Source: a virus. From it: a DNA stretch of 64,000 nt. The notes beneath the pieces are model-generated. The model was not told the DNA's origin. It saw only the letters and a list, made by a program, of their open reading frames with translations, and searched no databases. A program made the position numbers and the translations under genes. Where the stretch lies: IMG/VR virus record IMGVR_UViG_3300045988_169460. One strand, given 5' to 3'. This document shows, piece by piece, positions 1-42,036 of the stretch (the stretch's first letter is position 1; each line of letters begins with the position of its first letter).

Positions 1-45
1 TGAACGTCCTTATTTCTAAATTTTATTAAATTAGAAGGATAATCA

Positions 46-1062
46 ATGAAAAGAAAAGGAAATTTATGGACTAAAATAATAGACAAAAGCAATTTATATT
101 TGGCTTTTGAGAAAGCTAAAAGACATAAAAGTTGGCAAAGAAAAGTTAAAATTATAGAAGCAAATTTAGATTATTATATTGAAAAGTTACAAAATGATTT
201 GATAACAGGGCAATATAAAACCGCTGAATATAAGTTAAAAACAATTTATGAGCCAAAGAAAAGAGATATTTATATTTTGCCATTTTATCCAGATAGGATA
301 GTTCATCACGCTATTATGAATGTTTTAGAGCCTATATAGGATAATAGATTTATTTATAATAGTTATGCTTGTCGAAAAAATAAAGGACAACATAAAGGTA
401 GTATAAAATGTATGGAATACACTAGAAAATTTAAATATTGTTTGAAATGTGATATAAGTAAGTTTTATCCTTCTATTAATCACAGGCTTCTAAAGAAAGT
501 GATACGTAAAAAAATAAAATGTAAAAAGACTTTAAATTTATTAGATGAGATAATTGATAGCGTTGATACGCCAACAAATGTTCCTATAGGAAATTATTTA
601 AGTCAGTGGTTTGGAAACTTATATTTAAATGAGTTAGATGTTTTTCTAAAGCAAGAGAATTGTGTAAAAAATTATTTAAGATATTGCGATGATTTTTTAT
701 TATTTTCTGATGATAAAACATATTTAAATAAAATGGCTAAAATAATAAATGAATATGTAGTTAATATTTTAGAATTAAAACTTAGCAAATGTGTTTTGTT
801 TCCAACAGCACAAGGAGTTGATTTTTTAGGATATAGACATTTCCATGCTGGTTATGTTTTGGTAAGAAAATCAACAGCTAAAAGAATGAAGCGTAGGATT
901 AAAAGACTAAAATATGAATTATTGAAAAATAAAATAAGTAAAGATAAAGCTTTATCTGTTGTGGCAAGTTTATCTGGATGGTTAAGATGGGTTAATAGTT
1001 ACAATTTAAGAATGTTTTTAGAATTAGAATCATTAAAAAAGGAATTAGGAGGAAACTCTTAG
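46..1062 (+). CDS. DGR-type reverse transcriptase (Brt-like); one in-frame TAG at 337-339 splits it into ORFs 46-339 and 412-1062, which share a frame
   Basis: RT motifs span both ORFs: YEPKKRDI, DRIVHHA, SYACRKNKG, DISKFYPSI, PIGNYLSQWFGNLYL (DGR-type [I/L]GxxxSQ), YLRYCDDFLLF (YxDD), GVDFLGY. 412-46 is divisible by 3. Confidence 0.75.
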
Positions 1063-1341
1063 GTGGACAAGTTTAGTAGTTTTGCAGAAGAAAGATTAGT
1101 TGGAGATAAGGTTAGTGTTTCTGATATTTTAAATAAAGAAATAACAGTTTTATCTTATAAAATAATGAAAAGTAAAATAGAAGATGATAATTATGCTCAA
1201 ATTCAAATTGAAATAAATGGTGAAAAGAAAGTTGTATTTACAAGTTCTAAAGTTTTAAAAGACCAATTAGAAACTTATAAAGACCATATTCCTTTTATTG
1301 CAACAATAATTAAAACAAGAAAATATTTTTCTTTTAGTTAA
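1063..1341 (+). CDS. hypothetical protein
   Basis: GTG start at the base after the RT stop, with GGAGG upstream. No motif recognised. Confidence 0.5.
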   Translation: MDKFSSFAEERLVGDKVSVSDILNKEITVLSYKIMKSKIEDDNYAQIQIEINGEKKVVFTSSKVLKDQLETYKDHIPFIATIIKTRKYFSFS

Positions 1342-1353
1342 GGAGGAAATGTA

Positions 1354-1641
1354 ATGATAGGCTATCCAAAACATTTAAATACAAAAGCAGATTATGAATA
1401 TGTAAGAAACAATTTTCCAAAGGAAATGTGGGAAAAGGATTTTCGTGTTTTATTAGAGACCACACATGATTGGTTTTTTATTAGAGAATTAGAAAAAGGA
1501 GAGGTTCCTGTATTATTAGAAAATCAAAAAATAGAAAAAACGGAAGAAAAAGATTGTTTATTTGAATATAAATATGATGAAAATTGCACATTAAATAGAT
1601 TAGGCTTTACAATAGAAGAAATTGAAGAATATTTAAAATAA
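1354..1641 (+). CDS. hypothetical protein
   Basis: ATG preceded by AAGGAGGAAA. No motif recognised. Confidence 0.5.
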   Translation: MIGYPKHLNTKADYEYVRNNFPKEMWEKDFRVLLETTHDWFFIRELEKGEVPVLLENQKIEKTEEKDCLFEYKYDENCTLNRLGFTIEEIEEYLK

Positions 1642-1644
1642 TAG

Positions 1645-1673
1645 TTGACAATTTTTACATAACATGGTATAAT
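1645..1673 (+). promoter_or_regulatory. sigma-A-type promoter (TTGACA-17-TGgTATAAT)
   Basis: Exact -35 box, 17-nt spacer and extended -10. Followed by two short hairpins and then a second promoter. Confidence 0.6.
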
Positions 1674-1737
1674 ATTTATAGTGTTCAGATAACAGCTATG
1701 ACTGTTAAGTTATTACTTAAAATTTAATAAGTAATGC

Positions 1738-1766
1738 TTGACAGTCTTTTTATTTTATGTTATAAT
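1738..1766 (+). promoter_or_regulatory. sigma-A-type promoter (TTGACA-17-TGtTATAAT)
   Basis: Consensus boxes. It occupies the apparent N-terminus of track ORF 1734-1925. Confidence 0.6.
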
Positions 1767-1787
1767 AGTATTGAGGTGGAGGAAATA

Positions 1788-1985
1788 TTGAAAGGTTTTG
1801 AGAAACGTTTAAGTAAACAAAATTTTATGTTAATTAAAGTAAATGAATATTATTTTATTAGAAAAAGCAGAGCGTTTAATAATAGTTATATGGTATTAGA
1901 TTCAAAAGGGTATTTGATAGATTAGTTACAAGAAAAAATAGTTTGGCAAGTTTTTTTAGGCATAGATTTGGAGGAATGGGAATGA
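1788..1985 (+). CDS. small WE-tail protein interrupted by in-frame TAG (1923-1925)
   Basis: TTG start after GGTGGAGG. After the TAG the same frame continues LQEKIVWQVFLGIDLEEWE then TGA. The stop overlaps the next start (ATGA). Confidence 0.3.
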
Positions 1986-2197
1986 TTAAAAAACCTAATA
2001 ATAATTGTAGATTATGTAAGTGTCTTCATAACTATAGCTATTTTAAAAAAGGTGAATATTATTGGGCTGAATTAGGAGAACGTTTTTTTGCTGGTGCAGT
2101 TATAGTATATTTTGGGGATGAAAGACATGGTATATGCTCTATGGTTTTTCCCGACTTTTTCATTAAATTTCGATGGGAGGAGACACAATGGGAATGA
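1982..2197 (+). CDS. small WE-tail protein (ends TQWE)
   Basis: ATG 7 nt after GGAGG. C-terminus is FFIKFRWEETQWE. The track ORF 1943-2197 is probably over-extended at its 5' end. Confidence 0.5.
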   Translation: MIKKPNNNCRLCKCLHNYSYFKKGEYYWAELGERFFAGAVIVYFGDERHGICSMVFPDFFIKFRWEETQWE

Positions 2198-2394
2198 GGA
2201 TAACAGTAACTCCAAAAAGACAACTTATACATTATAATTTAAATGAACAATATATAGCAGTGTCTGTACTTAGTGTGTATGGAAGCATGGAATATAATAT
2301 TTATAGCAAAAAAGGCAATCTTCTAAATTCTTGGGTATCCTAAGAGGCATTATTTAAGTTTTTTAAAAAGGTGGTGGATAAAGAATGGGAATAA
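2194..2394 (+). pseudogene. small WE-tail gene interrupted by in-frame TAA (2341-2343)
   Basis: MRITVTPK...NSWVS, then TAA, then EALFKFFKKVVDKEWE and TAA in the same frame. A 37-codon remnant ORF (2385-2498) follows. Confidence 0.3.
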
Positions 2395-2481
2395 AATTAG
2401 TAAAGGCAAAAGATAATTCGGCTCATTTTAGTCGTGGAGAATTGTATAAAGTAATAATGGGAATAAAAGGAGGAAATAAAA

Positions 2482-2859
2482 ATGGAACCAATTATTAGTC
2501 CGTGGGTATTTTATTTTATTGATAAGTTAGAGGTAATAGAAATGCTTCCACTATATGTTTTTATTTTGGCAATATTAATAAATGGGGCATTACTTATGAC
2601 TAGTAAAACCGAAGAAGAGTTTGAAAAGGGGTTTTTCCCAAAAGTGTGGATAGCACTTTTCTCATTAGTGTTTATAATTAATTTTATAGTTCCTTCAAAA
2701 GAAACGGCATATAAAATGATTATAGCAAATTATGTAACACCTAACAGTATTTCTATAGTAAAAGAAGCCACAGAAGATAATATTGCTTCTTTATTAGATA
2801 AAATAGCAGTTACTTCACAGGCATTATCAGGAAGGGAGGAAAAAGAAAAATCCAAATGA
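2482..2859 (+). CDS. membrane protein (2 predicted TM segments)
   Basis: AGGAGG before the ATG and hydrophobic segments. Paralogue of the frameshifted gene at 45750-46053. Confidence 0.55.
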   Translation: MEPIISPWVFYFIDKLEVIEMLPLYVFILAILINGALLMTSKTEEEFEKGFFPKVWIALFSLVFIINFIVPSKETAYKMIIANYVTPNSISIVKEATEDNIASLLDKIAVTSQALSGREEKEKSK

Positions 2860-3056
2860 AACAGATAGAAAAAGTAAAGAAATTATATAAACCAAAATTT
2901 GAAATAGTAAGAGCAGAGAAAGTAAAAGATAATTATATATTATTCTTAGATGATAAAAATATTATATTAGAAGAAGATGCTTTTAAATCATTATTTGAGC
3001 TTTATAGTGCTTTAGTTTCTTATTATGATGTAAGAAAGGATGAAACAAATGATTGA
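2856..3056 (+). CDS. hypothetical protein
   Basis: ATGA overlap with the upstream gene. Confidence 0.45.
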   Translation: MKQIEKVKKLYKPKFEIVRAEKVKDNYILFLDDKNIILEEDAFKSLFELYSALVSYYDVRKDETND

Positions 3057-3744
3057 ATTATTCAATGGGAATTGTTTTGAAGTAATCGGGGGGGGGGCAG
3101 TAAAAGATAATAGTATAGATTGTATTATTACAGACCCTCCCTATAATGTTAGCAGAGAAACAAATTTTCATACTTTAAAGGGAGCTTTAAGAAATGGAAT
3201 GGATTTTGGAGAATGGGATAAAGGATTTGACATAACAGGTTATATTAAGTTGTTTCCTAGAATTCTAAAAGAAAATGCAAATGTTGTTATATTTAATGCT
3301 TGGGAAAATTTAGGAGAAATAGCAAAAGTATGTAGAGAATTTAATATAGCTCCTAAAAGATGTTTAGTGTTAAGTAAATCAAATCCCGCTCCATTTAATA
3401 GAGATAGAATGTTTGTTAATGATGTAGAATTTGCAATATGGGGAGTTTACAATTCTAAAAATAAACCTTCTAAATGGACATTTAACAGAGAAAATTTATT
3501 AGAAAAATGTGTGATTCCAACAACAGTGCAGTCTTCTAAATTACATCCAACAATGAAGGATGAGAAAGTAATAAATTATTTGTTGCGAGTTTTAACAAAT
3601 GAAAATGACTCAGTTTTAGATTTATTTATGGGGAGTGGCACTACAGGAGTTGCTTGTCGTAAATTAAAAAGAAATTTTATAGGCATAGAATTAGATACTA
3701 GGTATTTTGAAGTAGCAAAACGTAGAATAGAGGAAATAAAATGA
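3040..3744 (+). CDS. DNA methyltransferase, beta-class N6-adenine/N4-cytosine type
   Basis: Motif IV DCIITDPPYN precedes motif I LDLFMGSGTTGVACRKLKRNFIGIELD. Confidence 0.85.
   Translation: MKQMIELFNGNCFEVIGGGAVKDNSIDCIITDPPYNVSRETNFHTLKGALRNGMDFGEWDKGFDITGYIKLFPRILKENANVVIFNAWENLGEIAKVCREFNIAPKRCLVLSKSNPAPFNRDRMFVNDVEFAIWGVYNSKNKPSKWTFNRENLLEKCVIPTTVQSSKLHPTMKDEKVINYLLRVLTNENDSVLDLFMGSGTTGVACRKLKRNFIGIELDTRYFEVAKRRIEEIK
3088..3097 (+). repeat. G10 homopolymer in codons 17-20 of the methyltransferase
   Basis: atc ggg ggg ggg gca. G9 gives cag taa immediately; G11 gives a stop after 4 codons. Confidence 0.9.
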
Positions 3745-4013
3745 TTATACGCAAAGGTGATTATTTTAAAGTTCATACTTTTTTCAAGTATGATGGTAAT
3801 TCCTTTTTTAAAGGAAATTTATTACGAATAGTAAGTGATTTTTCAGTTGAGGAAGATGGCTTTTGCACAGTTTCTAATAAAGCTTGGCAAGGAACATCAA
3901 TAGGGCATACAAATGCAGGAAATCAATATAGTTTTGGTAAAGGAACACATTGGAATATTCCCATTAATTTTATAGAAGAACAATGTATTCCTGTGAGTCT
4001 TGAATGGGAGTGA
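3741..4013 (+). CDS. WE-tail protein, body family A (ends SLEWE)
   Basis: Paralogous to 4018-4305 and 38245-38508 (shared SNKAW...GH...YSFG...NW). Confidence 0.6.
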   Translation: MIIRKGDYFKVHTFFKYDGNSFFKGNLLRIVSDFSVEEDGFCTVSNKAWQGTSIGHTNAGNQYSFGKGTHWNIPINFIEEQCIPVSLEWE

Positions 4014-4017
4014 AAAC

Positions 4018-4305
4018 GTGAAATATAAGACAGGAGATTTTTTAATAGTTAAATCCCCTTTCAAAAGTGATGGTAATATTTTTCATGGAGAAGATATTCT
4101 TCGTGTGATTACATGTATTGATGATTATGCTGATGCTAATGAGAATGGCTATGTAATATCTAATAAATCTTGGATTTTTAGTCGAGAGGGGCATAGTGTA
4201 TATCGCAATAGTGCATATAGTTTCGGTAGAAATACAAATTGGTTTGTAAGATTTACTGTTTTAGAGGCTCATTGCACTTTATTAAAGAATAGAGAGTGGG
4301 AGTAA
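4018..4305 (+). CDS. WE-tail protein, body family A (ends NREWE)
   Basis: GTG start 7 nt after the GGGAG embedded in the upstream EWE codons. Confidence 0.55.
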   Translation: MKYKTGDFLIVKSPFKSDGNIFHGEDILRVITCIDDYADANENGYVISNKSWIFSREGHSVYRNSAYSFGRNTNWFVRFTVLEAHCTLLKNREWE

Positions 4306-4307
4306 CA

Positions 4308-4412
4308 ATGAGAGCATTTAGAGCACAGCAGTTTTGTAAGGCTTTTAATTTATATAAACAAAGAGGATATAGTATTAGTTATCTTTGGATGTTATTTAGT
4401 AAGAACTTATAG
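4308..4412 (+). CDS. small hypothetical protein (34 aa)
   Basis: ATG 5 nt after the GGGAG-TAA of the upstream gene. Below the track's length cutoff. Confidence 0.3.
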   Translation: MRAFRAQQFCKAFNLYKQRGYSISYLWMLFSKNL

Positions 4413-4435
4413 ATTTTATTAAATGAGGTGTTATT

Positions 4436-4846
4436 TTGAGTGAGTATTTTGAGTTATTTTTAAAGAAAAACAATTTAATGTTTAATCAAAAGTTTCAGGT
4501 TTTGGATTATGATGGAAAATATGCTGTTGGTAATGGGGCAAAATTTTGGATAGCAGATAATAAACTTCATTGTGATAATCCAGAGATGAATACTCGGCTT
4601 ATTATGTTAGAACTATTTGCTGGTAATTGTAGTGTAAAACAACTTCCTTATTATCCCACAAATGGTGATGTATATTTTTATATTTATATGGACGGAAGCA
4701 ATAATCAGGGAGTTGTATCTAAGGGAGTATTTTATGGTAATTTAGTAGACCAGCTTTTGCGAAGTTTAGGAAAATGTTATAGAACTAGAAATGAAGCAGA
4801 AGAGCACTTAAAAGAGGATGTTAATTTTTTATTAAAAGGAAGATGA
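4436..4846 (+). CDS. hypothetical protein; paralogue of 48018-48431 and 57764-58177(-)
   Basis: Shared C-terminal GKCYRTRNEAEEHL motif and overall similarity. TTG start after GAGGTG. Confidence 0.55.
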   Translation: MSEYFELFLKKNNLMFNQKFQVLDYDGKYAVGNGAKFWIADNKLHCDNPEMNTRLIMLELFAGNCSVKQLPYYPTNGDVYFYIYMDGSNNQGVVSKGVFYGNLVDQLLRSLGKCYRTRNEAEEHLKEDVNFLLKGR

Positions 4847-4850
4847 AAAA

Positions 4851-5102
4851 ATGGAAGATAAGCTATTAATTATTTTAGAAAGTTTAGAAAATAAAGGAGA
4901 TATAAATTCTGAAATAGATTTATCTGAAACAGGTTATACTCCAAAAGTTATTAAAGAATTATTACAGTCTTTAGGCTATAAAATGGTTAGTGGTTCTTGG
5001 GATTGTTACGATTTTTCAGAGGAATATGGGAAAGAGGGGGCATCAAATGTGGTGCTATCTTTTAATGCAGAAACTTTTAAATTCACAATAATGGGGGTAT
5101 AA
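4851..5102 (+). CDS. hypothetical protein
   Basis: ORF track; no motif recognised. Confidence 0.45.
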   Translation: MEDKLLIILESLENKGDINSEIDLSETGYTPKVIKELLQSLGYKMVSGSWDCYDFSEEYGKEGASNVVLSFNAETFKFTIMGV

Positions 5103-5104
5103 AA

Positions 5105-5425
5105 ATGACACTAGAAGATATTGCAGTAATGAGTACAAAAGTTCCACAAGAGTTGTTAATTTCTTATATGCAAGATACCTCTTTAATTTATCTTATAGCG
5201 ATTCTTGCTAGCTTCTCTTTATTGATATCTCTTATTATTTTTCTAGGATGGCAAGTATACGATGGAGTAACAGCATTGAATGAGGTGCAGGCAATTAGTG
5301 CCATGATTTTTTTAATAGGTATTTCTCTTTTTACTATTGGAGCTTTTTTTCAGGCTTTTGAAAGTTTTATTTTTTATTTTAATTGCTATTTTAATCCATT
5401 AATTATGATATTACAGGCGGTGTAA
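5105..5425 (+). CDS. membrane protein
   Basis: Two to three long hydrophobic segments. Confidence 0.5.
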   Translation: MTLEDIAVMSTKVPQELLISYMQDTSLIYLIAILASFSLLISLIIFLGWQVYDGVTALNEVQAISAMIFLIGISLFTIGAFFQAFESFIFYFNCYFNPLIMILQAV

Positions 5426-5430
5426 AAATA

Positions 5431-5652
5431 ATGTATAAAGTTTGGGCAGTAATAGATGGGGAAAAATACTGGGTAACAAAATTTATAAATGTTGCAGGGT
5501 TTCTTAAAATTCATTTTACACAAGATGTAACAGATAATGTAGTTATATATCCCAATAAGGATATAGCAAGACGAGCATTAATAGCTACTTTAGACCATAT
5601 ACCAGAAGTTGTAGAAGTGGGAATGTTGGAAATTTCCTATAAAAATAATTAA
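5431..5652 (+). CDS. hypothetical protein
   Basis: ORF track. Confidence 0.45.
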   Translation: MYKVWAVIDGEKYWVTKFINVAGFLKIHFTQDVTDNVVIYPNKDIARRALIATLDHIPEVVEVGMLEISYKNN

Positions 5653-5660
5653 AAAAAAGG

Positions 5661-5689
5661 TTGACAAAAATCCAAAAGTATGCTATAAT
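5661..5689 (+). promoter_or_regulatory. sigma-A-type promoter (TTGACA-17-TGcTATAAT) upstream of the tail fibre
   Basis: Consensus boxes with an A-rich upstream tract. Confidence 0.65.
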
Positions 5690-5719
5690 AGGTATATAAT
5701 TAAAGAGTAAGGAAAATGG

Positions 5720-5745
5720 GGAAGCTCTAAGTGGGCTTCCTTTTT
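5720..5745 (+). terminator. intrinsic-terminator-like hairpin inside the tail-fibre leader
   Basis: GGAAGCT-ctaagtg-GGCTTCC followed by TTTTT. It lies downstream of the predicted transcription start and upstream of the ATG at 5769. Confidence 0.5.
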
Positions 5746-5768
5746 AGCATATTGAATGGAGGTTTATA

Positions 5769-8564
5769 ATGGCTCAAACAAAAATTTGGGATGGAACTAA
5801 ATGGGTTGATTATATAATGTCAAGTCAAATTAAATTGCCATTAGGTTCAATAGGATTTTCGTTAGATGGGATATTACCAGAAGGTGCAATAGCGGCTACA
5901 GGATTAGAACTTAGCAGAGAAGTTTATAAAGATTTATGGGGATTTGCACAAAAAGGTGGAGAAACTCGTTTAATAAGTGAAGAAGCTTGGCAAGCAGAGT
6001 TAGCGGCAAATGAGGGAAGATTTTGTAGATATTATAGCACTGGAAATGGTGCTACTACCTTTAGAATTCCTTATATCGCTTGTTATTTAAGTGGTACAGC
6101 AGAAGCAGAAAAAGTTGGAACTTGTGTAACAGATACACAAAGGAATATCACAGGTTCAATAGGAGAAGTATTTGCTCCTAATCCACCAAATACTACTGGT
6201 GCTTTTACCGAAGAAGTATCAAGAAGAATACATGTTCTAAACGATTCTGTTGAAAATCATATTTGGAAAATAAACTTTGATGCCTCTCGAGTTGTAGGAG
6301 CAGAACATACAGGTGAAGAAGTAAAACCAAAAACGGCATATGTGTTATATTATATACAAGCTTTTAGTACAATCATTAATTCTGGAACATTAGATATTGG
6401 AGAGTTATTAGAGCACGTTGAAACTTTAGAAAAAAGTGTTGGCTATCCATTAGGGGCTATTTATCCTACTTTATATGGAAGTATAGATGTTGGAAGTCTT
6501 CCTTGTTTGGGAGGAGAATATAATAGAGAAACTTATAAAGATTTGTGGGAATTGGTTCAGACAAAAGAAGGGTATGTAGTAACTGAATCTGAATGGCAAG
6601 CATTAAATACAGCAAATGAAGGAAACGTGCCTAAATTTTCTAGTGGTGACGGAAGCACAACTTTTAGATTGCCTAAGATTACTAAATTTTTAAGTGGTGC
6701 AGAATCAATAAGCGAAGTTGGAACTTATGTAACAGACACACAACGAAACATTACAGGTTCTATTGCGATGGGGGTTTGGTCTTCTCCCTCGGGGTGTTTT
6801 TATGCAAATTCTACAAGTAATATGAAGCATGGTCGTGTTCAAGAAACGGCAGGGTCTTGTGCCTTTGATGCTTCTCGTTCAGTAGGCACAGAACATACAG
6901 GTGAAGAAATAGCCCCAAAACATATAAAAGCTTTATATCAAATTAAAGCGTATGGAGTAGTATCAAACACTGGAAATATTGATGTTACTAATTTAGCAAA
7001 AGATGTGGAGCAGTTAAATACTACAGTTCAAACTGAAAAAATTAATCATCAAATTAAACCATTTACAGATTTAAGTCAAATAGGATTAATTAAGGGAACA
7101 GAGACATTAAAATCTATTGGTGAGGCTTTGCCAGAAAATTCTCAAATAAGTTATCAGATAGAAATTGGAAGCGGGCATAATAGTATAGAATATCCTCAAA
7201 TTAAAGGATATTTTAATATGAAAAAGGATACAACATATTGTTATTGTGTTTTTGCAACAGAATCTAATACGAAAATGTTTCAAAGAAGTTTTGATTACCG
7301 AGATGCTTTTTATATTGATGCAAATTGGTCAGTAATGGCAGACAATAATAAATTGAGTATGCCCTCTAATAACAAGATAATTATTAACTTAAAAAATCAG
7401 GGAGATTCCTGGACAGCTCCTTGTGATGGTTATATATGGGGAATGAAAGTTGGAGGTAGTAATGTTGTAAATAGTTGGTTAAATGTTTGGGACTCCACTA
7501 ATGCAGATACAACTAATTATGGCACTTTAATTTATTGTGATTATGGTCAACCATATATTAATTTATGTGGTAATTTAGCTATACGAAAAGGTCAGACTGT
7601 TTATTTTAATTGGAGTAATAATTGTAGAGTATATTTTTATCCAGCTTTAAATGCTAATATGCCTACTTATGGCGAAGATGTAAGAATTTATTTTAAAGCT
7701 GTAGATTCAAATAATAATATTATTAGTGGAGCTTCTTTTAAAATTTCTATAGCAGATAGCAGTGGGGATATTGTTATTCTTTCAGGAAAAACATCCAGTG
7801 ATGGACGTTATTTAGTTCCAGAAGATAAATGGCTATCTTTAACTGGCTTAGAAGATAATCAATTAATCACTTGTACTATGACTAAAGGAAATGCTACTGG
7901 TTCAGCAGAATATAGAATTTCTTTATTTAAAGAAAATATGATTTATGATTTGCCAATAACTCTTGTTGAAGGGGGGGGGGTAATTCATAATATAGATTTA
8001 GAACTTGCAGTAAGTGGTCAGATTAGATGCAATAAAACATCAGGAGATGGTAATACACAAGCATATGCTGGTGATGAAATTATTTTAACTGCTGTACCTG
8101 ATGTGGGTGTTGAGTTTTTAAATTGGCAAATTATTAATCTTACCACATTGGAGAAAGAAATAAAGATAGAGAATCCTCTCACTTATATTATGCCTGATAG
8201 TGATATCAGAGTAGCGGCTGATTTTAATGACGACCCTATTGACATTCCTATAGACCCCTCATCACCTAGTCCTGCGGTTGATGTTTATTTTAAAGTATTA
8301 ACTAATGGAACTACTACAATGGGTTATAATGTAACACTTTATTCCCCAAAAGGTAATGTTATTTGGCAAGGTGTAACAAATTCACAGGGCTATGTACAAT
8401 TAGACCCTACTCTTAGTTTCTATGCAGAAGATGGTATGACACTTCGGGCAATGAAAGGAAGCAAGTTTACTCAGATAACGGTTAATAAAGACAGTTTTAG
8501 CACAGATAAGGCAGATAGTAATAATGCGATTTGGTTTACTCTTACTGTTGGTGAGATGGGATAA
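5769..8564 (+). CDS. tail fibre / receptor-binding protein
   Basis: Two tandem tail-collar-like modules (GDGSTTFRLP..., VTDTQRNITGSI..., FDASR..GxEHTGEE). The C-terminal part has beta-sandwich-like repeats (SSDGRYLV, NSQGYVQL). Confidence 0.7.
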   Translation: MAQTKIWDGTKWVDYIMSSQIKLPLGSIGFSLDGILPEGAIAATGLELSREVYKDLWGFAQKGGETRLISEEAWQAELAANEGRFCRYYSTGNGATTFRIPYIACYLSGTAEAEKVGTCVTDTQRNITGSIGEVFAPNPPNTTGAFTEEVSRRIHVLNDSVENHIWKINFDASRVVGAEHTGEEVKPKTAYVLYYIQAFSTIINSGTLDIGELLEHVETLEKSVGYPLGAIYPTLYGSIDVGSLPCLGGEYNRETYKDLWELVQTKEGYVVTESEWQALNTANEGNVPKFSSGDGSTTFRLPKITKFLSGAESISEVGTYVTDTQRNITGSIAMGVWSSPSGCFYANSTSNMKHGRVQETAGSCAFDASRSVGTEHTGEEIAPKHIKALYQIKAYGVVSNTGNIDVTNLAKDVEQLNTTVQTEKINHQIKPFTDLSQIGLIKGTETLKSIGEALPENSQISYQIEIGSGHNSIEYPQIKGYFNMKKDTTYCYCVFATESNTKMFQRSFDYRDAFYIDANWSVMADNNKLSMPSNNKIIINLKNQGDSWTAPCDGYIWGMKVGGSNVVNSWLNVWDSTNADTTNYGTLIYCDYGQPYINLCGNLAIRKGQTVYFNWSNNCRVYFYPALNANMPTYGEDVRIYFKAVDSNNNIISGASFKISIADSSGDIVILSGKTSSDGRYLVPEDKWLSLTGLEDNQLITCTMTKGNATGSAEYRISLFKENMIYDLPITLVEGGGVIHNIDLELAVSGQIRCNKTSGDGNTQAYAGDEIILTAVPDVGVEFLNWQIINLTTLEKEIKIENPLTYIMPDSDIRVAADFNDDPIDIPIDPSSPSPAVDVYFKVLTNGTTTMGYNVTLYSPKGNVIWQGVTNSQGYVQLDPTLSFYAEDGMTLRAMKGSKFTQITVNKDSFSTDKADSNNAIWFTLTVGEMG
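7971..7980 (+). repeat. G10 homopolymer at tail-fibre codons 735-738
   Basis: gaa ggg ggg ggg gta. G9 gives TAA immediately; G11 gives a stop after 3 codons. Confidence 0.9.
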
Positions 8565-8616
8565 ATCTTTATTCCTGCTGGTACTGTTGGAGCAAATTAA
8601 TTAAAGGAGATAACTA

Positions 8617-9009
8617 ATGTATTATAGGTTAGACAGTAATGGAAATATTATAGATTGTAGTTTAGTTTACTATGGTTCTGGTTGTTTGAAAACTGATAGA
8701 GCTATAATAAGAGATTTAAAAGGTCAATTAGTTTTTGAAGATGAAATTGACATAAAAGCTTTAGAAAAAGAAAAAAAAGCACTAGAATTTGAAAATGATA
8801 GACAAAAATATCTTGGTATAGTTGAAAGTAGGCTACAAGAGTCTGATTATAAGTGTTTAAAATTTGTAGATGGTGCTTTAAGTGAAAGTGAGTATGCTTC
8901 TATTAGGGCAGAACGTGAAAAATTAAGATTATGTTATAATGAATTAGAGATTGTAAAAACTAAAACTAAATTAAAAGAATTGATAGCCACTTACAATTTA
9001 GATAATTAG
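8617..9009 (+). CDS. hypothetical protein, possibly a tail-fibre assembly or accessory protein
   Basis: Position directly after the tail fibre. No firm motif. Confidence 0.3.
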   Translation: MYYRLDSNGNIIDCSLVYYGSGCLKTDRAIIRDLKGQLVFEDEIDIKALEKEKKALEFENDRQKYLGIVESRLQESDYKCLKFVDGALSESEYASIRAEREKLRLCYNELEIVKTKTKLKELIATYNLDN

Positions 9010-9083
9010 TAGGGGGTGTAAAAATGGCTTGTAGTGGAGCAAAGAAAAAGAAGAAAATAAAAAAATAAGGAGGATACTTTATC

Positions 9084-9299
9084 TTGAAAATTGTAGATAA
9101 ATTTTATATTCGGTGTGTTCGTTATTTTGCACAAGAAGAGTGTGAAGAAATGTGTTTACAGTTATTTCAATTAAGCGATGAAGTTTTTGCCTTATCAAAT
9201 GAAGTAAATATAATGTTATTTGATTGTTTTGATTTAAAAAAATCCTATTTAAATCAAAGAGCGTTAAATTGTTTAAGGAAAGCGGAAATTTGTCCGTAA
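9084..9299 (+). CDS. hypothetical protein
   Basis: TTG start after AAGGAGG. Confidence 0.4.
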   Translation: MKIVDKFYIRCVRYFAQEECEEMCLQLFQLSDEVFALSNEVNIMLFDCFDLKKSYLNQRALNCLRKAEICP

Positions 9300-11765: not shown

Positions 11766-12008
11766 ATGGTAAAATTAAAGGAAGGATTAGGGCATGCTGA
11801 GTGGCTTTGGTTTATGCACAATTCAATACAGTTTAGAAATGCTTGTTATGTAGATGCTAATATATTATGGAATATGTTAAAAGATGGGGTTTCAGAAGAT
11901 GCCTTAAAAATCAGAGATGATAGTACAGGTTATAAAGAAATCTGTTATAAAGAAGTTAAATATGCCTTACCTATAAAGTGGTGTTTGCCAATTTTTGAAT
12001 GGGAATAA
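11766..12008 (+). CDS. WE-tail protein, family D (ends IFEWE)
   Basis: ATG 5 nt after GGGAG-TAA. Confidence 0.55.
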   Translation: MVKLKEGLGHAEWLWFMHNSIQFRNACYVDANILWNMLKDGVSEDALKIRDDSTGYKEICYKEVKYALPIKWCLPIFEWE

Positions 12009-12015
12009 AAAACAC

Positions 12016-12044
12016 TTGACAAAAAGAAAAAAATATGGTATAAT
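12016..12044 (+). promoter_or_regulatory. sigma-A-type promoter (TTGACA-17-TGgTATAAT)
   Basis: Consensus boxes. Confidence 0.65.
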
Positions 12045-12069
12045 AGTATAAAAGATAGGAGATGATTTA

Positions 12070-12396: not shown

Positions 12397-13887
12397 ATGG
12401 CTATTAAAGTTTTTATAAGTAACTCTCAATTATTAAAAAACTTAACAAATACAGAAAGAGAGCAAATAAAAAAAGATTTAACTTTTAAAAATCCTGAATA
12501 TGAAAGTATTCTTAAATTCTCTAGATGGGGGAGCACTAAAGTTCCAGAATTTCTTTATTATTATAAAGAAATAGGGGATAGCTTAGAAGTTCCTAGAGGA
12601 TATAAGATACCTTTTACTTATGAGGTTATAGAAGATGCCTCAATTAGTTTTAATAATATAGAATATCCATCAGTACAAATCCAGCCTAGAAAAGTACAAC
12701 AGGTAGCAATAGAGCATTTTACTGATAATACTGGAACACTTGTTATAAATACAGGGTTAGGTAAGTCAATAATTGGCTTGATATTGGCAGGGAAGTTAAA
12801 AGAAAGAGCCTTAATTATAGTTAATAAAGACGATTTAATAGATGGTTGGCAAAAAGATGCTCTGTTGTGCTATGGGGAAATAGAAATAGGTTTAGTAAAA
12901 GGCAAGGTTTTCAATATAGGAAAACAAATTACTTTAACTACGATACAAACCCTTTCTAGGCTAGGTGATGAAAAGCTTGATAAATTAAAAGAAAGTATAT
13001 CAATGTTAATTTGTGATGAATGTCATAGGTGTTCTGCTAAGATATACAGTGTTCTGAATGACTTCCCTGCCAAATATCGTTTAGGCTTAACAGCAACTAA
13101 AATGAGAAATGATGGATTAGCAGATGTGTTAGATTTAATTTGTGGGCATACATTGTATGAATACAAAGGGGAATTTGAAACTTCTGATATTATAGATACA
13201 AAAGATATTTTTGTAATAAAGAGGGAAAGTCAGTTAAAGTGGAATCCAGTGATTGATTATTACTGGACGAAAAGCGGAGCAAAAGTAAAAGCATTAGCAT
13301 ATAAAGATAAAGTATTCGCACCACATACACCAGAATGGAGAGCTTTAATAACGCAGTTATTGAGTACAAAGGAAGTTGATAGTTTACCTGTTAATTTGCA
13401 GGAAGCTTATAAAATTGTATCAGAAGATTTAGCGTTTAATAGATTAGTTGTTGAAGATATTATAAAAGAATATAATTTAGGAAAATCTTGTATAGTGTTT
13501 TGTAAAGAGAAAGAGCATATAAATTTATTGTATGATATGTTGGTAGATATATGTCCAAGAATACAAAAATACTATGGAGATATGAAAGAAACAAAAGCAG
13601 AAATAAAAGAGAAAGCAGAAACAAAAGAAGCATTAATTACATTAGCTACTATTTCTATTAGTTGTGAAGGAACTAACGTAAAATCATGGGAGAGAGGATT
13701 TCTTGTATCTACAGTGGCAAACAAGAAAGATTTGATACAGATTTTAGGAAGGTTACGAAGAACTAAAGATGGTAAGACTAATGTATTTTTTTATGATTAC
13801 AGACATCCTTTTATGGCAATTTTTAATAAGCATGGTATAAAGAGGGATAAGTGGTATAGAGAAATAGGAATTACAAAAATTATTTAA
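12397..13887 (+). CDS. superfamily-2 DEAD/DEAH-box helicase
   Basis: Walker A NTGLGKS, Walker B LICDECH, motif III LTAT, motif VI QILGRLRR. Confidence 0.75.
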   Translation: MAIKVFISNSQLLKNLTNTEREQIKKDLTFKNPEYESILKFSRWGSTKVPEFLYYYKEIGDSLEVPRGYKIPFTYEVIEDASISFNNIEYPSVQIQPRKVQQVAIEHFTDNTGTLVINTGLGKSIIGLILAGKLKERALIIVNKDDLIDGWQKDALLCYGEIEIGLVKGKVFNIGKQITLTTIQTLSRLGDEKLDKLKESISMLICDECHRCSAKIYSVLNDFPAKYRLGLTATKMRNDGLADVLDLICGHTLYEYKGEFETSDIIDTKDIFVIKRESQLKWNPVIDYYWTKSGAKVKALAYKDKVFAPHTPEWRALITQLLSTKEVDSLPVNLQEAYKIVSEDLAFNRLVVEDIIKEYNLGKSCIVFCKEKEHINLLYDMLVDICPRIQKYYGDMKETKAEIKEKAETKEALITLATISISCEGTNVKSWERGFLVSTVANKKDLIQILGRLRRTKDGKTNVFFYDYRHPFMAIFNKHGIKRDKWYREIGITKII

Positions 13888-13893
13888 AAATGC

Positions 13894-13922
13894 TTGACAA
13901 AACTAAAAAAGTATGATATAAT
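13894..13922 (+). promoter_or_regulatory. sigma-A-type promoter (TTGACA-17-TGaTATAAT)
   Basis: Consensus boxes. Confidence 0.65.
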
Positions 13923-17162: not shown

Positions 17163-18177
17163 AAATTAATATGGACTTAAAAGATAAAAAAATAGTAGGA
17201 TTGGAGCTTTATAAAAGTGGGATGTCATTAACAGAAATATCTAAGAAATTAAAAATTAGCAGAAAAACTATTACAAAATATGTAAAAGAGAGTGGTATAA
17301 AGATAGAAAAAAACGTACATAAATATTTTATAAATTCAAGCTATTTTAAAGTTATTGATAGCGAAGCTAAAGCTTATTTTCTTGGGTTATTTATGGCTGA
17401 TGGATGCGTTATCAAAAGAAAATCTTATGTTTTTGAGATTACCTTAAAAAGCGAAGATGCTTATATTTTAGAAGCATTTTTGCAGGATGCTAAAGGAACT
17501 TATTTAATAAAAGATAAGGTTGTTAAATATAGAAATAATAATGTTATATATAAAAGATTAATTATTAGTGATTCAGAATTTTGTCGAAATTTAATTAAGC
17601 AAGGAGTAGTTCCTAATAAAAGCTTAATTGCTAATCCCCCACTTTTAAATGATAAATATAAAAGACATTTTATAAGAGGCTTATTAGATGGGGATGGGCA
17701 TTATTCTAAATCACGAAGAAGAATAACATTAACTACTACTTATAATTTATTAAAGTATGTTTTACAAGCATTTAATGCTGATATTTCTTTAATACATCTC
17801 AAAAATAATATTGCTTATTTTGATATTTCTAAAAACTATTATTTAATTATCATCTATTTATATTTTAATGCACATTATTATATTAATAGAAAACGAGAGT
17901 CTATTCTTGCCGTCTTACATAGATACGGTAAAGATATGTAAGATTACGAGGGGGCAAAATCGGTAAAAGCTGTAAAATGCTAATACCGAGGTAACTGGAT
18001 AATCCAGCACCGTAACGCATAGAGATTGGAATAATATCTCCACGAGTGTCCTCCACATACCGTACACTTTTGTGGAAGTGAAAATATATGCTATACTGGA
18101 ATGGAATTGACCATTCGATGAAAATGAAGGAAACTTCCAGAGCTACAGATAAAAAGCTGTAGGTTAATAACAATTAG
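17163..18177 (+). mobile_element. intron (group-I-like) carrying a homing endonuclease, inserted in the dnaB Walker A codons
   Basis: Joining 17162 to 18178 restores GYTGTG-KTWLLCIIAVAMAK... (GxxGxGKT). The last intron nucleotide is G. About 240 nt of non-coding sequence follows the endonuclease ORF. Confidence 0.6.
17171..17941 (+). CDS. LAGLIDADG homing endonuclease with N-terminal HTH
   Basis: Two LAGLIDADG motifs: FLGLFMADGCV and FIRGLLDGDGHY. It lies in a different frame from the dnaB exons. Confidence 0.8.
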   Translation: MDLKDKKIVGLELYKSGMSLTEISKKLKISRKTITKYVKESGIKIEKNVHKYFINSSYFKVIDSEAKAYFLGLFMADGCVIKRKSYVFEITLKSEDAYILEAFLQDAKGTYLIKDKVVKYRNNNVIYKRLIISDSEFCRNLIKQGVVPNKSLIANPPLLNDKYKRHFIRGLLDGDGHYSKSRRRITLTTTYNLLKYVLQAFNADISLIHLKNNIAYFDISKNYYLIIIYLYFNAHYYINRKRESILAVLHRYGKDM

Positions 18178-28273: not shown

Positions 28274-28800
28274 AGCAAGTAGATGTTCTTAAAGAACGGT
28301 TAGAACTTTTAAAAAGATATGAACCTGATTCGAAAGAAATAGTAGAGTTAGAAAATCGGATTAAATTAAGCAAAAAAGCTAAATCCAGTAGGAGAAAAGG
28401 GGCATCTTATGAATCAAAGGTAAGGAAGCTTTTGGGCGAAAGATTTCCTGATTTAGATTTTTCAAGAGTTCCTTCCAGTGGTGGATTTCAAAAATCCTCA
28501 GCTAATACTTTGTTAAGAGGAGACTTAGTTAATCTAAATGAAGATTATGATTTCAAATTACATTTAGAACTAAAAAATCAAAATAGATGGCAAGTTAATA
28601 CATGGTTTGAGCAAGCTGAAAGTGATTGTATTGAAGGTAAATTGCCTATAGTCATTATGCATAGAACGCAGAAAAATGAAAATGGCAAGCGAATAGCAGA
28701 AGCAGATGATTTTGTATTTTTACGTTTAAAAGATTTTTTAGATATTCTAGATGATGGAAAAATAATCAAAAAATGTCTTGACAAAAAGACAAAAATGTGA
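28270..28800 (+). CDS. PD-(D/E)xK nuclease-like protein
   Basis: GASYESKVRKLL...SGG...GDLV...LELKNQ pattern. Confidence 0.4.
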   Translation: MKQVDVLKERLELLKRYEPDSKEIVELENRIKLSKKAKSSRRKGASYESKVRKLLGERFPDLDFSRVPSSGGFQKSSANTLLRGDLVNLNEDYDFKLHLELKNQNRWQVNTWFEQAESDCIEGKLPIVIMHRTQKNENGKRIAEADDFVFLRLKDFLDILDDGKIIKKCLDKKTKM

Positions 28801-28806
28801 TATAAT
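28778..28806 (+). promoter_or_regulatory. sigma-A-type promoter embedded in the 3' end of the upstream gene
   Basis: TTGACA-17-TGaTATAAT. It drives the SpoVS-like gene. Confidence 0.6.
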
Positions 28807-28867
28807 AACATTTGTAATAATTTTAAAAAAGCCTATAAAGGGCTATAAAAGGAAAGAGGAAGATAGA

Positions 28868-34883: not shown

Positions 34884-35492
34884 ATGGATAATTGCGAATT
34901 TTATTTATTATATAGCGGCGGGTATGATAGCACTGTGTTGCTTTATGATTTTATTGATAAATTACCTAATAAATTGACAGTAATACATATTGTTACTCAG
35001 TATAATCAAGAAGAAACAAAAGCGGCAAGAGAGATAATTGAATTAGTAAAAGACAAAATTCTTAACTATATTGAATTAGAAATGCCTGTTTATAAAACAG
35101 AAATAGAATATATTCCATACAGAAATGCTCAATTTATATTAAGAGCACTTTCAACCTTGACAATTAAAGCAGGATGTGCTATAATATTATTAGGGTTGAT
35201 AAGAGTAGAAGAACCTTTTCCTGATTGCACACAGTATTGGTTAAAAACAATGGAGAAATTAGTTCAAGTAGAAAATCCTCATATTGGATTAGAAGCACCT
35301 TATATTAACAATACTAAAGATGAAATTTATACTGTAGGATGTAAGTTTAAGGTTCCTTTAAGAAATACTTTTAGTTGTAACTTTCCTGTAGATGGTGCAG
35401 AATGCGGGGAATGTGGAAACTGTAAATGGAAAGCAAAACATAAATATCCTAATTATTTTAGAGTTATAGAAGGAGGTAGAAACAATGTTTAA
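34884..35492 (+). CDS. queC: 7-cyano-7-deazaguanine synthase
   Basis: PP-loop LLYSGGYDST and C-terminal zinc motif CGECGNCKWK. Confidence 0.8.
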   Translation: MDNCEFYLLYSGGYDSTVLLYDFIDKLPNKLTVIHIVTQYNQEETKAAREIIELVKDKILNYIELEMPVYKTEIEYIPYRNAQFILRALSTLTIKAGCAIILLGLIRVEEPFPDCTQYWLKTMEKLVQVENPHIGLEAPYINNTKDEIYTVGCKFKVPLRNTFSCNFPVDGAECGECGNCKWKAKHKYPNYFRVIEGGRNNV

Positions 35493-35685
35493 AATTATTA
35501 ATGGTAAGGGAACAGGTTCTAACACACAAAAGAGTGCAGTGAATACCTCCCCACAAGTGAAGATTACTAGCCCAGCAACAAGAAGAAGTTTATCTTGGCT
35601 TAGAAGGGTGCAAACAAGTTTAACTCCAAGAACAAAAAAAGCTTTAGATTGGTTAGAAGCCAATAGTGTTAGATTACCTAAATAA
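35485..35685 (+). CDS. small basic protein
   Basis: ATG after GGAGG; K/R/S/T-rich. Confidence 0.4.
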   Translation: MFKIINGKGTGSNTQKSAVNTSPQVKITSPATRRSLSWLRRVQTSLTPRTKKALDWLEANSVRLPK

Positions 35686-35700
35686 TAGGAGAATTAGTTA

Positions 35701-37542
35701 ATGAAAAATGGATATACGTTATTTCTTTCTGGTGTTGAACCAGAAGAAAATTTCTATACTGCAATAGATGTTACCTCTAGTCTATTGCAGTCTTATTGGT
35801 ATATAAAGCGGCGTGGAAAAGATAAAATTGTAGAGCGTTTTGATAAAGTTAAGAAAAATTCTTTGTTAATTGATAGTGGAGCACATACTTTTCTCACCTT
35901 AGCAGAATATCAAGATAAGACAGTAGATTATTGGGAAGAGTATATAAAAGGATATATAGCTTTTGTAAGAAAACATAGAGAAAAAGTATTTGCTTGTGTT
36001 GAAATGGATATAGATACTTTAGTAGGAACAGAACAAGTAAATAAATGGAGAGAAGAATACTTTCATTCTTTAGAGGAAGAGGGCATTTCTGTTATTTATG
36101 TTTATCATGCAGAAAAGGGATTGGAAGAGTGGGAAAGAATGTGTAAAACATATTCCTATGTTGGGTTCTCTTACAATGAATTTGAAGATGCTATTTTAAT
36201 TGATAAATTATTTGAAATAGCAATGGAATATAAAACTAAAGTACATGGTTTTGCAGTATCGGGATATAGAGAATTATTAAAACATGAGTATTATACAAGT
36301 GACAGTACAAGTTGGATTACAGGAGCTCAATATGGAGAATTAAACTATTTTGAAGGTGGGAAATTAAAACGGCTCACAAAAGAAAAATGGAAAAATGAAT
36401 ATTATGCAAAAATACTTGATTTATGTACAAGTAAAAAGTTATTAGAAGCAGAAGCTCCTTATGAATTAATGCGTATTAGTGCTTTAAGTTATAAGAAATT
36501 AGAAGAGCATGTAAATGATATATTTAGAGGCAAAAGATATTGGATTGGAAGAAAGGAAGTGTCTAAAGTAGCGAGTAAGGGAAATTTACCGCCAGTAGAG
36601 TGGTTTTCAACTGATATGGAAGATTGGCAAGAATGGGCACAGAAATTAAATATAGACACGAATCTTCCTGATGAAGCAGGTAAATCATTAATTGTTGCTT
36701 GTTACAATTTTGTGACAGATAATCCTATTATAAATGAGTATCCTCTCGAAGAATTAATTGACTTATGTGGACTTTTTGGTGATAAGAAGTCGAATACTCT
36801 TACTAAGTGCCGAAAAGCCCTTAAAGAGCACTTTACAGCTCTCTTAAAGGGTAGTATGGATTTATCCACTTTGACAGAAGAAGAAGTAGAAGAGAAAAAA
36901 AATGTAGTTCCAAAAGAGCGGGAAGAGTATGTTCAAGAAAAAGAGTATGTAGAATGTACTGTTAGCAAGGAAGAGTGTCAAGGTTTATTAAAAGGGTTAT
37001 TAACTTCTGGTGTGACAGATGAAGCAGAGAAAGCTTTAATTGAACAGGGAATAGAGCCTATTTATGATGAGAATGGAAACATTAAAGCAGGTATTAAACG
37101 AATAAAGAAAAGAAAATCTTTAAGTTCAAGTGTGATGCCAGAGTTAAGTTGCAATATTTGTACTAAAGCACGGAGATGTCCTTTATATGAAGAAGGAATG
37201 CTTTGTGCTTATAATAAAATGTTTAAGCAATTTGATACAAGAAATCCCGAAGATGTAGTAGATGCTATGAGCAGTATTGCAAATTTAAGTTTAGAAAGAT
37301 TATCAAGGGCTGTGACATTTGAAAAATTAGATGGTGGCTTAAATACTAAAGAGGTAACAGAGACAATGGCAGAAGCATGGAAATATCTTGAAAAGATACA
37401 AGAAATTCAAACAAAGAGTGATAAAGTTATAGCAGAGCGTAGAGTTGTAACTTCTTCTAACGGCGATGTAGAAGTAAGAGAAAGTGTAACAGGAAATCCG
37501 CAAGGTTTATTGTCTGAGATTCTAAAAACAAAAAAAAGTTGA
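35701..37542 (+). CDS. dpdA: DpdA-like (TGT-superfamily) DNA guanine transglycosylase fused to a ~350-aa C-terminal region of unknown function
   Basis: N-terminal LLIDSGAHTF and VHGFAVSG resemble the TGT/DpdA catalytic regions. Adjacent to queC. The C-terminal part has a Cys cluster, SCNICTKARRCPLYEEGMLC. Confidence 0.45.
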   Translation: MKNGYTLFLSGVEPEENFYTAIDVTSSLLQSYWYIKRRGKDKIVERFDKVKKNSLLIDSGAHTFLTLAEYQDKTVDYWEEYIKGYIAFVRKHREKVFACVEMDIDTLVGTEQVNKWREEYFHSLEEEGISVIYVYHAEKGLEEWERMCKTYSYVGFSYNEFEDAILIDKLFEIAMEYKTKVHGFAVSGYRELLKHEYYTSDSTSWITGAQYGELNYFEGGKLKRLTKEKWKNEYYAKILDLCTSKKLLEAEAPYELMRISALSYKKLEEHVNDIFRGKRYWIGRKEVSKVASKGNLPPVEWFSTDMEDWQEWAQKLNIDTNLPDEAGKSLIVACYNFVTDNPIINEYPLEELIDLCGLFGDKKSNTLTKCRKALKEHFTALLKGSMDLSTLTEEEVEEKKNVVPKEREEYVQEKEYVECTVSKEECQGLLKGLLTSGVTDEAEKALIEQGIEPIYDENGNIKAGIKRIKKRKSLSSSVMPELSCNICTKARRCPLYEEGMLCAYNKMFKQFDTRNPEDVVDAMSSIANLSLERLSRAVTFEKLDGGLNTKEVTETMAEAWKYLEKIQEIQTKSDKVIAERRVVTSSNGDVEVRESVTGNPQGLLSEILKTKKS

Positions 37543-38513: not shown

Positions 38514-38870
38514 ATGAAATATAAAGCAGGAGATGTAGTAAAAATTGACAAAACAAGATTTGTTATAGAAAGAGTTACTAAAAAAGGCTATATTTTATTT
38601 CCTCATATAGGATTTTTCGTAAAGGATTGCCAAATAAATAAAAAAATTAAAGTGAAGAAATCTTATGAATTAGGAGATAAATTCAAATGTCTATGTGACT
38701 TTAGTTCAGGGACTTCTGTGGCGAAAAAAGACAAACATTATATTTGTACACAGAAATTTTCAGATGGCACATATATGCTTACAAGAATAAAAAATAAAGA
38801 AGAGAAATTAAGAGTGAATACAAATCAGATTCATGCTTATTTTAGACATTATTTTGGAGGTTGGGAATAG
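38514..38870 (+). CDS. WE-tail protein (ends GGWE)
   Basis: ATG after GTGGAG. Confidence 0.55.
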   Translation: MKYKAGDVVKIDKTRFVIERVTKKGYILFPHIGFFVKDCQINKKIKVKKSYELGDKFKCLCDFSSGTSVAKKDKHYICTQKFSDGTYMLTRIKNKEEKLRVNTNQIHAYFRHYFGGWE

Positions 38871-39073: not shown

Positions 39074-39080
39074 AAAAGTC

Positions 39081-39109: not shown

Positions 39110-39142
39110 AAGTGCATAAGATATTGAAAGAGAGGTTATAAC

Positions 39143-42019: not shown

Positions 42020-42036
42020 ACTAAGGAGGCTTGCAA

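Follow-up and report, generated by a model that had tools for sequence, protein, structure and literature searches.

The tail-fibre gene at positions 5769-8564 (+ strand) of the viral record IMGVR_UViG_3300045988_169460, analysed here as a stretch of 64,000 nucleotides (hereafter the window), carries a run of ten guanines (G10, 7971-7980, + strand). Judged from its sequence and its natural polymorphism, this tract is, with good confidence, a genuine hypermutable contingency switch that toggles a C-terminal extension of the fibre. An earlier note, made from the letters of this DNA alone, had proposed that the tract switches between a full-length and a truncated fibre, and the G8 to G12 alleles found on identical backgrounds support this proposal. 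The window genome itself is in the ON state: its fibre open reading frame (ORF), the sole long ORF of the region, runs through the tract and encodes 931 amino acids (aa).

Read 5' to 3', the local sequence is CTCTTGTTGAA, then GGGGGGGGGG, then TAATTCATAA (7981-7990, + strand), the last of which supplies a TAA for both alternative frames, at 7981-7983 for G9 and G12 and at 7988-7990 for G8 and G11. Codon 734 is GAA (7968-7970), codons 735-737 are GGG and codon 738 is GTA, which gives EGGGV at residues 734-738, the tract encoding Gly735-737 and the first base of Val738. With nine guanines the reading becomes GAA GGG GGG GGG TAA and the product ends at 737 aa, while with eleven it becomes GGG GGG GGG GGT AAT TCA TAA and a 740-aa product ends in ...GGGGNS. 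G12 again puts TAA straight after the glycines (EGGGG and stop) and G8 ends in EGGGNS. A change in length therefore swaps a product of 931 or 932 aa for products of 737 to 741 aa. The EGGGV at residues 734-738 of 931, the TAA directly after GGG in G9 and the stop after three codons in G11 are all as the earlier note had described them, and the loss that it put at about 195 residues in the OFF state amounts to 194. Both kinds of short product are present in databases: P0005, P0123 and P0127 end in ...LVEGGG (G9), and P0122, P0126 and P0131 in ...LVEGGGGNS (G11).

Tract length was read at the DNA level in 18 independent contigs, the window included. Six are in frame, all with G10 (the window, L012, L001, L010, L002 and L028), and twelve are out of frame (G8 twice, G9 four times, G11 four times, G12 once, and one G10 with an extra AG after the tract). 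The 73 distinct tract-bearing proteins divide into 20 ON and 53 OFF forms. These proportions indicate that the truncated forms are viable and often the majority allele. A single phage occurs with G8 (L022, L023), G9 (L004, L005), G10 (window, L012), G11 (L009, L018-L020) and G12 (L021), and in-frame forms of the G13 type are found in relatives. Within the cluster of at least 90% identity to the window's protein the C-termini are EGGGV in the 931/932-aa proteins (G10) and, immediately before the stop, EGGG (G9), EGGGG (G12), EGGGNS (G8) and EGGGGNS (G11). Three different sequencing runs provide a direct comparison: L018 (SRR23984152, G11), L021 (SRR34061404, G12) and L022 (ERR14033591, G8) show no mismatch and no gap over 2,200 nt upstream and 9,000 nt downstream, and the nine A/T runs of 7-8 nt in these flanks are invariant. 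No other part of the genome thus changes at anything like the rate of the tract. The proteins P0122 (G11), P0125 (G8), P0127 (G9) and P0128 (G12) are likewise identical over residues 1-734, with only their ends differing. The earlier note would have abandoned its proposal had there been no length heterogeneity, or had truncated variants proved non-viable and never enriched; lengths from G8 to G12 are found on one haplotype, and the truncated form is the assembled majority allele in two thirds of the contigs (12/18).

The tract is also exceptional for its genomic context. The GC content of the window is 30.3%, its G runs have lengths of 1 to 6, then 9, 10 and 10, and its C runs are all shorter than 6. 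Between 0.014 (independent, identically distributed bases) and 0.03 (first-order Markov model) G runs of at least 9 are expected, and three are observed. GGG represents 15% of the Gly codons in the window's long ORFs. These run-length statistics and the low share of GGG argue that neither base composition nor codon use produced the tract by chance.

The sequence beyond the tract is preserved in genomes where it is switched off. The ON-frame ORF 3' of the tract is fully open, over 194 or 211 codons, in all 11 readable OFF genomes (read directly or identical over that stretch; L008 was excluded since it has too little sequence past the tract). This ORF is 100% identical over 582 nt among G9, G10 and G11 genomes, and between lineages its ratio of nonsynonymous to synonymous substitution rates (dN/dS) is 0.35-0.55. 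The tract itself follows ...IYDLPITL[V/I]E in lineages whose fibres are merely 51-59% identical to that of the window. Its 3' flanks differ among the diverged lineages (TAATTC, AGTAATTC or CAGTTC), each having its own ON and OFF lengths, and the termini that result from these different contexts (EGGGE, EGGGSNS, EGGGQFII, EGGGSS and EGGGGSS, each followed by a stop) have all been observed. No tract is present in those relatives' fibres that lack the C-terminal extension. Such fibres stop at the same boundary (...IYDLEIHIV, P0099, P0102 and P0115-120) or otherwise (...ELQVLVS). The existence of these natural short relatives implies that a fibre ending after S1, the beta-sandwich domain preceding the tract, is a working architecture, and that a tract is found only if the fibre has a module to switch on or off.

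A sister lineage, 'EPPKV', has GAACCGCCAAAAGTA in place of the G tract; its polyC tract lies one linker further on, in the Pro-rich one. There, C10 in L015 gives a 940-aa protein (ON) and C9 in L013 an 835-aa protein ending in ...PPIT (OFF), several database proteins ending likewise. L001 and L010 carry both polyG and polyC tracts in one gene, their C tract being C9.

Two further observations concern the gene end. L014 (SRR13773809 contig; gene end 4789), which has no G tract, shows a CAA>TAA nonsense change at codon 763 that leaves a 762-aa fibre; the change lies 25 codons past the tract position and is an independent route to a similar truncation. This contig ends inside C10. When the switch is OFF, gene callers report the C-terminal part that is out of frame as a gene of its own, beginning with TTG or ATG (for example MLKGGGVIHN...). 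Orphan C-terminal ORFs of this kind include P0141 (representing 32 sequences), P0142, P0146, P0151 and others, as well as the ORF at 3193-3795 of L018. Their independent translation from the TTG start (MLKGGGV...) is unlikely, as it is not preceded by a Shine-Dalgarno motif.

By annotation, the switched gene encodes a host-recognition (tail-fibre) protein. GGAGG lies upstream of its start, at 5758-5762. Eight PHROG tail-fibre or tail families match residues 1-470 (E-values of 6e-23 to 2e-9), and tblastn against 50,697 phage records retrieved annotated tail fibres of Achromobacter and Yersinia phages, at no more than 31.5% identity and in the collar modules only. Megablast of the gene against the same records gave no nucleotide match. 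The fibre has no match in GTDB genomes and hence provides no prophage or host clue. In relatives whose contigs reach beyond the window, a Phage-tail_3 protein, an Mtd-like protein and a reverse transcriptase (RT) are encoded about 5-6 kb upstream of the fibre gene, which places the latter near the tail module.

The N-terminal half contains two collar-like modules (5817-6407, residues 17-213, and 6426-6995, residues 220-409, both + strand). They are 41% identical (E-value 2e-44), in agreement with the internal duplication that the earlier note had located at residues ~30-205 and ~225-400; the close relatives P0006 and P0009 have a single copy. The Pfam Collar profile (PF07484) scores 17.7 bits over residues 290-303 only, below its gathering threshold of 24 bits, and 'collar-like' therefore denotes a resemblance and not membership. 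Two central beta-rich domains follow (7053-7646, + strand; approximately residues 430-508 and 537-625), predicted by AlphaFold2 with a pLDDT (predicted local distance difference test) of 63-90. This region is mosaic among near-identical phages, segments being replaced in P0005 and P0004 relative to P0001. The last domain of the short product is S1, a transthyretin/CnaB-like beta-sandwich (7686-7967, + strand; residues 640-733). In the AlphaFold2 model of residues 420-737 (mean pLDDT 71), two beta-rich domains precede a sandwich at residues 640-731 (pLDDT 75-91), whose best single-domain Foldseek matches are 3e8v (TMt 0.79) and transthyretin-like proteins.

The domains that are present in the ON product only begin with an InlB B-repeat-like domain (8049-8234, + strand; residues 761-822), to which the Pfam profile Flg_new_2 matches with 35.4 and 37.4 bits (E-values 1e-8 and 3e-9), above the gathering threshold of 23.6 bits. 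A second, Pro-rich linker (8235-8276, + strand; residues 823-836), without a tract in the window genome, leads to the terminal bMG3/CnaB-like beta-sandwich S2 (8277-8549, + strand; residues 837-927). S2 is a beta-sandwich in the AlphaFold2 model (residues 837-927, pLDDT 64-85), with Foldseek matches to 3e8v (TMt 0.68) and CnaB2 (TMt 0.60). The bMG3 profile matches residues 837-909 with 26 bits, below the cut-off of 34.9, and a sequence search of the PDB gave marginal alpha-2-macroglobulin matches only. S1 and S2 are not recognisable duplicates of each other at the sequence level (BLASTP E-value 1.2); their models merely share generic fold matches. The model of residues 738-931 has a mean pLDDT of 57, and its first strand after the tract begins at residue 739. 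As S1 ends before the tract and the B-repeat and S2 come after it, Gly735-737 correspond to an inter-domain linker.

The description of the C-terminal region in the earlier note, a B-repeat-like segment followed by a second beta-sandwich, is upheld by the Flg_new_2 score above the cut-off and by the S2 model. Its further suggestion, that this region is probably the distal host-contacting part, is no more than a possibility. As relatives end naturally at the boundary and OFF alleles predominate, the comparison points to the C-terminal module as an accessory add-on rather than an essential receptor-binding tip. Primary receptor binding can be ascribed at least as well to the hypervariable loops of the collar modules and to the mosaic domains in the centre of the fibre.

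The switch may operate as follows. Slipped-strand mispairing during replication of the phage DNA would add or remove guanines, presumably at a high rate within populations. G7, G10 and G13 would be in frame and give the 931-aa fibre with its B-repeat and transthyretin-like sandwich; with the remaining lengths a TAA would come within 0-3 codons, leaving a fibre of 737-741 aa that ends with S1. If both proteins are assembled into virions, the population would continually regenerate two virion types that differ in their fibre tip. The toggled module could be an accessory adhesin that alters adsorption to, for instance, a glycan that varies on the host surface or material of non-host origin; a changing host surface or environment could enrich either state.

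Several points weigh against a contingency switch. Each allele is an assembly consensus, and switching is read from polymorphism between samples; the sole hints of mixed lengths in one population come from contigs that break at or near the tracts. That the alternative frames stop early is only slightly out of the ordinary, stop density there being 0.085-0.12 per codon. The B-repeat part is modelled poorly (pLDDT 31-55), which makes half of the C-terminal model unusable; Foldseek moreover indicates a fold class and not a function, and the matches of the toggled module are generic beta-sandwiches such as occur in adhesin stalks and carbohydrate-binding modules. Finally, the ON fraction (6/18 contigs, 20/73 proteins) is indistinguishable from the neutral expectation of 1/3 (p = 1.0 and 0.32), so that directional selection on the state is not apparent.

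This last point suits a neutral mutational hotspot on a dispensable and decaying appendage, in which ON and OFF would have no adaptive meaning. The dominance of OFF alleles, the similar truncation that an ordinary nonsense codon (763) causes in L014 and the existence of lineages without any extension agree with such an origin. However, an unselected homopolymer and the ORF downstream of it should decay, whereas lineages about 50% diverged retain the tract at one and the same codon, and the downstream ORF is intact in the 11 readable OFF genomes with a dN/dS below 1. Moreover, a second tract arose at the next linker in sister lineages, and precisely those fibres that lack the extension also lack a tract. 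Neutrality of the locus thus appears unlikely.

Programmed recoding, either a ribosomal -1/+1 frameshift or transcriptional slippage, would allow one genotype to produce both fibres in a set ratio, as in the two-isoform cases of T7 10A/10B and lambda G/GT. Long homopolymers are known slippage sites, and the G9 allele offers a suitable context: its run is followed by the in-frame TAA, and a tRNA-Gly in the P site could slip back by one base with perfect re-pairing, so that reading would continue with GTA ATT... in the ON frame. A programmed site should nevertheless have a conserved length, while lengths from G8 to G13 occur, including in-frame alleles without a stop; no downstream stimulatory structure was seen, nor was any searched for. 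As the explanation of the locus, recoding is distinctly improbable. It could, on the other hand, be superimposed on DNA switching and make OFF alleles leaky, especially G9. That the phage always has G10 and that the other lengths are homopolymer sequencing or assembly errors is very hard to credit, for although homopolymers are error-prone and some sequences end at or near tracts (L014 inside C10, P0130 two codons past the tract), non-G10 alleles recur across independent contigs and assemblers (P0122, G11, in 6 contigs; G9 in ENA assemblies of metaSPAdes/MEGAHIT type; G8, G11 and G12 in Logan assemblies), alleles at two bases from G10 (G8, G12) exist, the remaining 11.2 kb show no indel even in A/T runs of 7-8 nt, and the tracts are shorter than the assembly k-mers.

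A hypermutable switch in the fibre gene would not be the only one in this genome. The ORF at 3040-3744 (+ strand; 234 aa) matches the N6_N4 profile of N6/N4 DNA methyltransferases and contains a G10 tract at 3088-3097 (codons 17-20). It is ON in the window, and G8, G9, G11 or G12 would lead to a stop at aa 20-23. Among relatives it is OFF in L004 (G12), L026 (G11), L008 (G9) and L001/L002, and ON in L028; the ON form noted in relatives is GGA+G10. The second switch that the earlier note had placed in this gene is thus corroborated by natural lengths of G9, G10, G11 and G12. The states of the fibre and the methyltransferase, in that order, are ON/ON in two, OFF/OFF in three, ON/OFF in two and OFF/ON in none of seven genomes, a set too small for any correlation to be drawn. 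Just upstream, the short ORF 2856-3056 includes a paralogous stretch of 42 nt, where the tract position reads AGAGCAGAGAAA. A third G tract (G9, 55972-55980, + strand) lies within a 13-codon mini-ORF (55952-55993) that has its own AAGGAG and directly follows ORF 55483-55950 (PHROG 1987, unknown function). Short peptides result at every tract length. This mini-ORF could be a leader or regulatory element.

The family also encodes an RT of the type found in diversity-generating retroelements (DGR). In the window (46-1062) a TGG>TAG change (stop at ~337-339) splits it into ORFs 46-339 and 412-1062, compared with the intact 338-aa RT of L004; the RT of L028 is split too. In relatives, an Mtd-like protein (PF21916) and the Phage-tail_3 protein are encoded just upstream of the RT, outside the window. 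The fibre gene was considered as a DGR target and rejected: no pair of template and variable repeats (TR/VR) was found in 1-9100 or in the whole window, and the sole repeats touching 5769-8564 are those of the collar duplication.

A broader scheme, which remains tentative and rather unlikely, would have the family place homopolymer switches repeatedly and specifically in the C-terminal linkers of the fibre, polyG after S1 and polyC after the B-repeat. Such a 'truncation ladder' would give up to three tip architectures per genotype and, together with the phase-variable methyltransferase and the Mtd-targeting DGR, would form a three-layer bet-hedging system. Given that OFF alleles predominate in stool and that the toggled domains are sandwiches of the adhesin type, what the module binds may be not the primary receptor but, for instance, a phase-variable host glycan, mucus or an antibody/decoy target.

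Upstream of the fibre gene, a sigma-70-type promoter-like site (5661-5689, + strand) consists of TTGACA, a 17-nt spacer and TATAAT with TG, a 12/12 match located 80 nt before the fibre start. Promoter-like motifs of about 40-50 nt with the same TTGACA-17-TATAAT arrangement precede several genes (5641-5690, 12006-12045, 13875-13922, 28758-28807 and, on the - strand, 63813-63852) and probably mark one temporal transcript class. Between the promoter-like site and the fibre start, a hairpin identified by eye (GGAAGC...GCTTCC, then TTTTT; 5720-5745) was not called by the terminator scan, its loop exceeding 8 nt. It could be a leader/attenuator or the terminator of the upstream gene.

Relatives of this phage come from human-gut metagenomes, as contigs of about 95-100 kb. 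A small protein encoded nearby has entries in 690 blocks of a public assembly collection, suggesting that the phage family is very common. Among isolates, the best match of the DNA polymerase is that of Bacillus phage BCD7, with 30% identity. Shine-Dalgarno-like motifs lie ahead of 40 of the 66 ORFs, in line with the Firmicutes-type signals reported in the earlier note. The endolysin has one match, at 66% identity, in an uncultured Phascolarctobacterium metagenome-assembled genome where the neighbouring genes have no match, which provides a weak host hint.

Other features of the window include a QueC gene (PF06508, 34884-35492) adjoining that of a 613-aa protein that matches the PHROG 'queuine tRNA-ribosyltransferase' (DpdA-like, E-value 7e-54; whole region 34884-37542). 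From these genes, some of the G in the phage DNA is probably replaced by a 7-deazaguanine derivative; the DNA of Campylobacter phage CP220 is reported to be 100% ADG-modified (PMC10516641). Two paralogous Amidoligase_2 proteins are encoded at 42323-43492 and 53831-55285. Diverged internal duplications with 70-73% identity link 38856-39410 with 42025-43787 and 48004-48413 with 57782-58191 (- strand), one of them being an inverted pair across a strand switch near 56.5 kb. In the replication module, the ORF at 17171-17941 shows a weak LAGLIDADG_3 match in annotation precomputed for two identical relatives, L018 and L021, and is probably a homing endonuclease.

The switch can be compared with several known systems. 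The precedent to which the earlier note had appealed, polyG-mediated variation of receptor-binding proteins in Campylobacter phages, is real: hypermutable polyG tracts in the receptor-binding-protein genes of Fletchervirus were described by Sorensen et al. (Cell Rep 2021), as cited in PMC10579305, PMC10877375 and PMC11959909. A 2025 review (PMC11959909) calls phage-encoded phase variation 'an exceptional case', known from Campylobacter Fletchervirus. As far as these citing papers describe them, both cases have in common a polyG tract in a phage host-recognition gene, frame-shifting length changes, several tracts per genome, an AT-rich genome and an association with the gut. However, the present phage is unrelated, uncultured, about 95-99 kb long and not known to infect Campylobacter. 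In contrast to Fletchervirus as represented in the citing papers, its tract lies at a late inter-domain linker, so that the OFF state removes a 194-aa accessory tip and not the whole protein, and its relatives add a polyC switch at the next linker.

Contingency loci have also been described in T2, T4 and other coliphages, in the form of simple sequence repeats (SSRs) of at least 6 nt (Gomez, Barrick & Waters, bioRxiv 10.1101/2025.10.21.683753). In the same study, these SSRs are short, A/T runs of about 6-9 nt predominating; they belong to AT-rich genomes and are reported as under-represented in tail-fibre genes (0.77x). The principle is shared, namely reversible homopolymer frameshifts by polymerase slippage that generate heterogeneous progeny and bet-hedging. 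Here, by contrast, a G10 tract in a genome of 30% GC is far outside the background run lengths and is conserved in a fibre gene.

Phages Mu (G segment, Gin) and P1 (C segment, Cin) exchange one fibre C-terminus for another through a recombinase that inverts a DNA segment site-specifically. As in the present case, a reversible DNA change affects only the C-terminal part of the fibre and one stock contains two tip types; unlike in Mu and P1, homopolymer slippage requires no recombinase and the module is either present or absent. In Bordetella phage BPP-1, a DGR rewrites residues of the Mtd-type receptor-binding protein by mutagenic retrohoming. This is likewise a dedicated diversification of phage host recognition, and the family studied here encodes an RT beside an Mtd-like protein upstream; the fibre gene, however, is touched by no TR/VR pair, and the RT of the window carries the TGG>TAG stop. 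Phase-variable methyltransferases (phasevarions) are known in Haemophilus, Neisseria, Helicobacter and Campylobacter. The window methyltransferase resembles them in its 5'-proximal G tract, whose length sets the ON or OFF state and varies among genomes, but it is phage-encoded, with no cognate restriction gene identified nearby. It may serve to protect or epigenetically mark the phage DNA rather than to regulate host genes.

At the sequence level, the fibre locus thus displays every hallmark of the polyG phase-variable phage receptor-binding proteins. What goes beyond precedent, as far as checked, is the late-linker position of the tract, the second, polyC switch in sister lineages and the coexistence with a phase-variable methyltransferase and DGR genes. 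In most assemblies gene callers split the fibre into two 'genes', and the annotation of such loci in viromes is consequently systematically wrong. The same strategy is now found in a widespread human-gut phage family, where the switch can be read directly from existing metagenomes and where identical genomes that differ only in tract length constitute a natural experiment relating tip architecture to host, individual and time.

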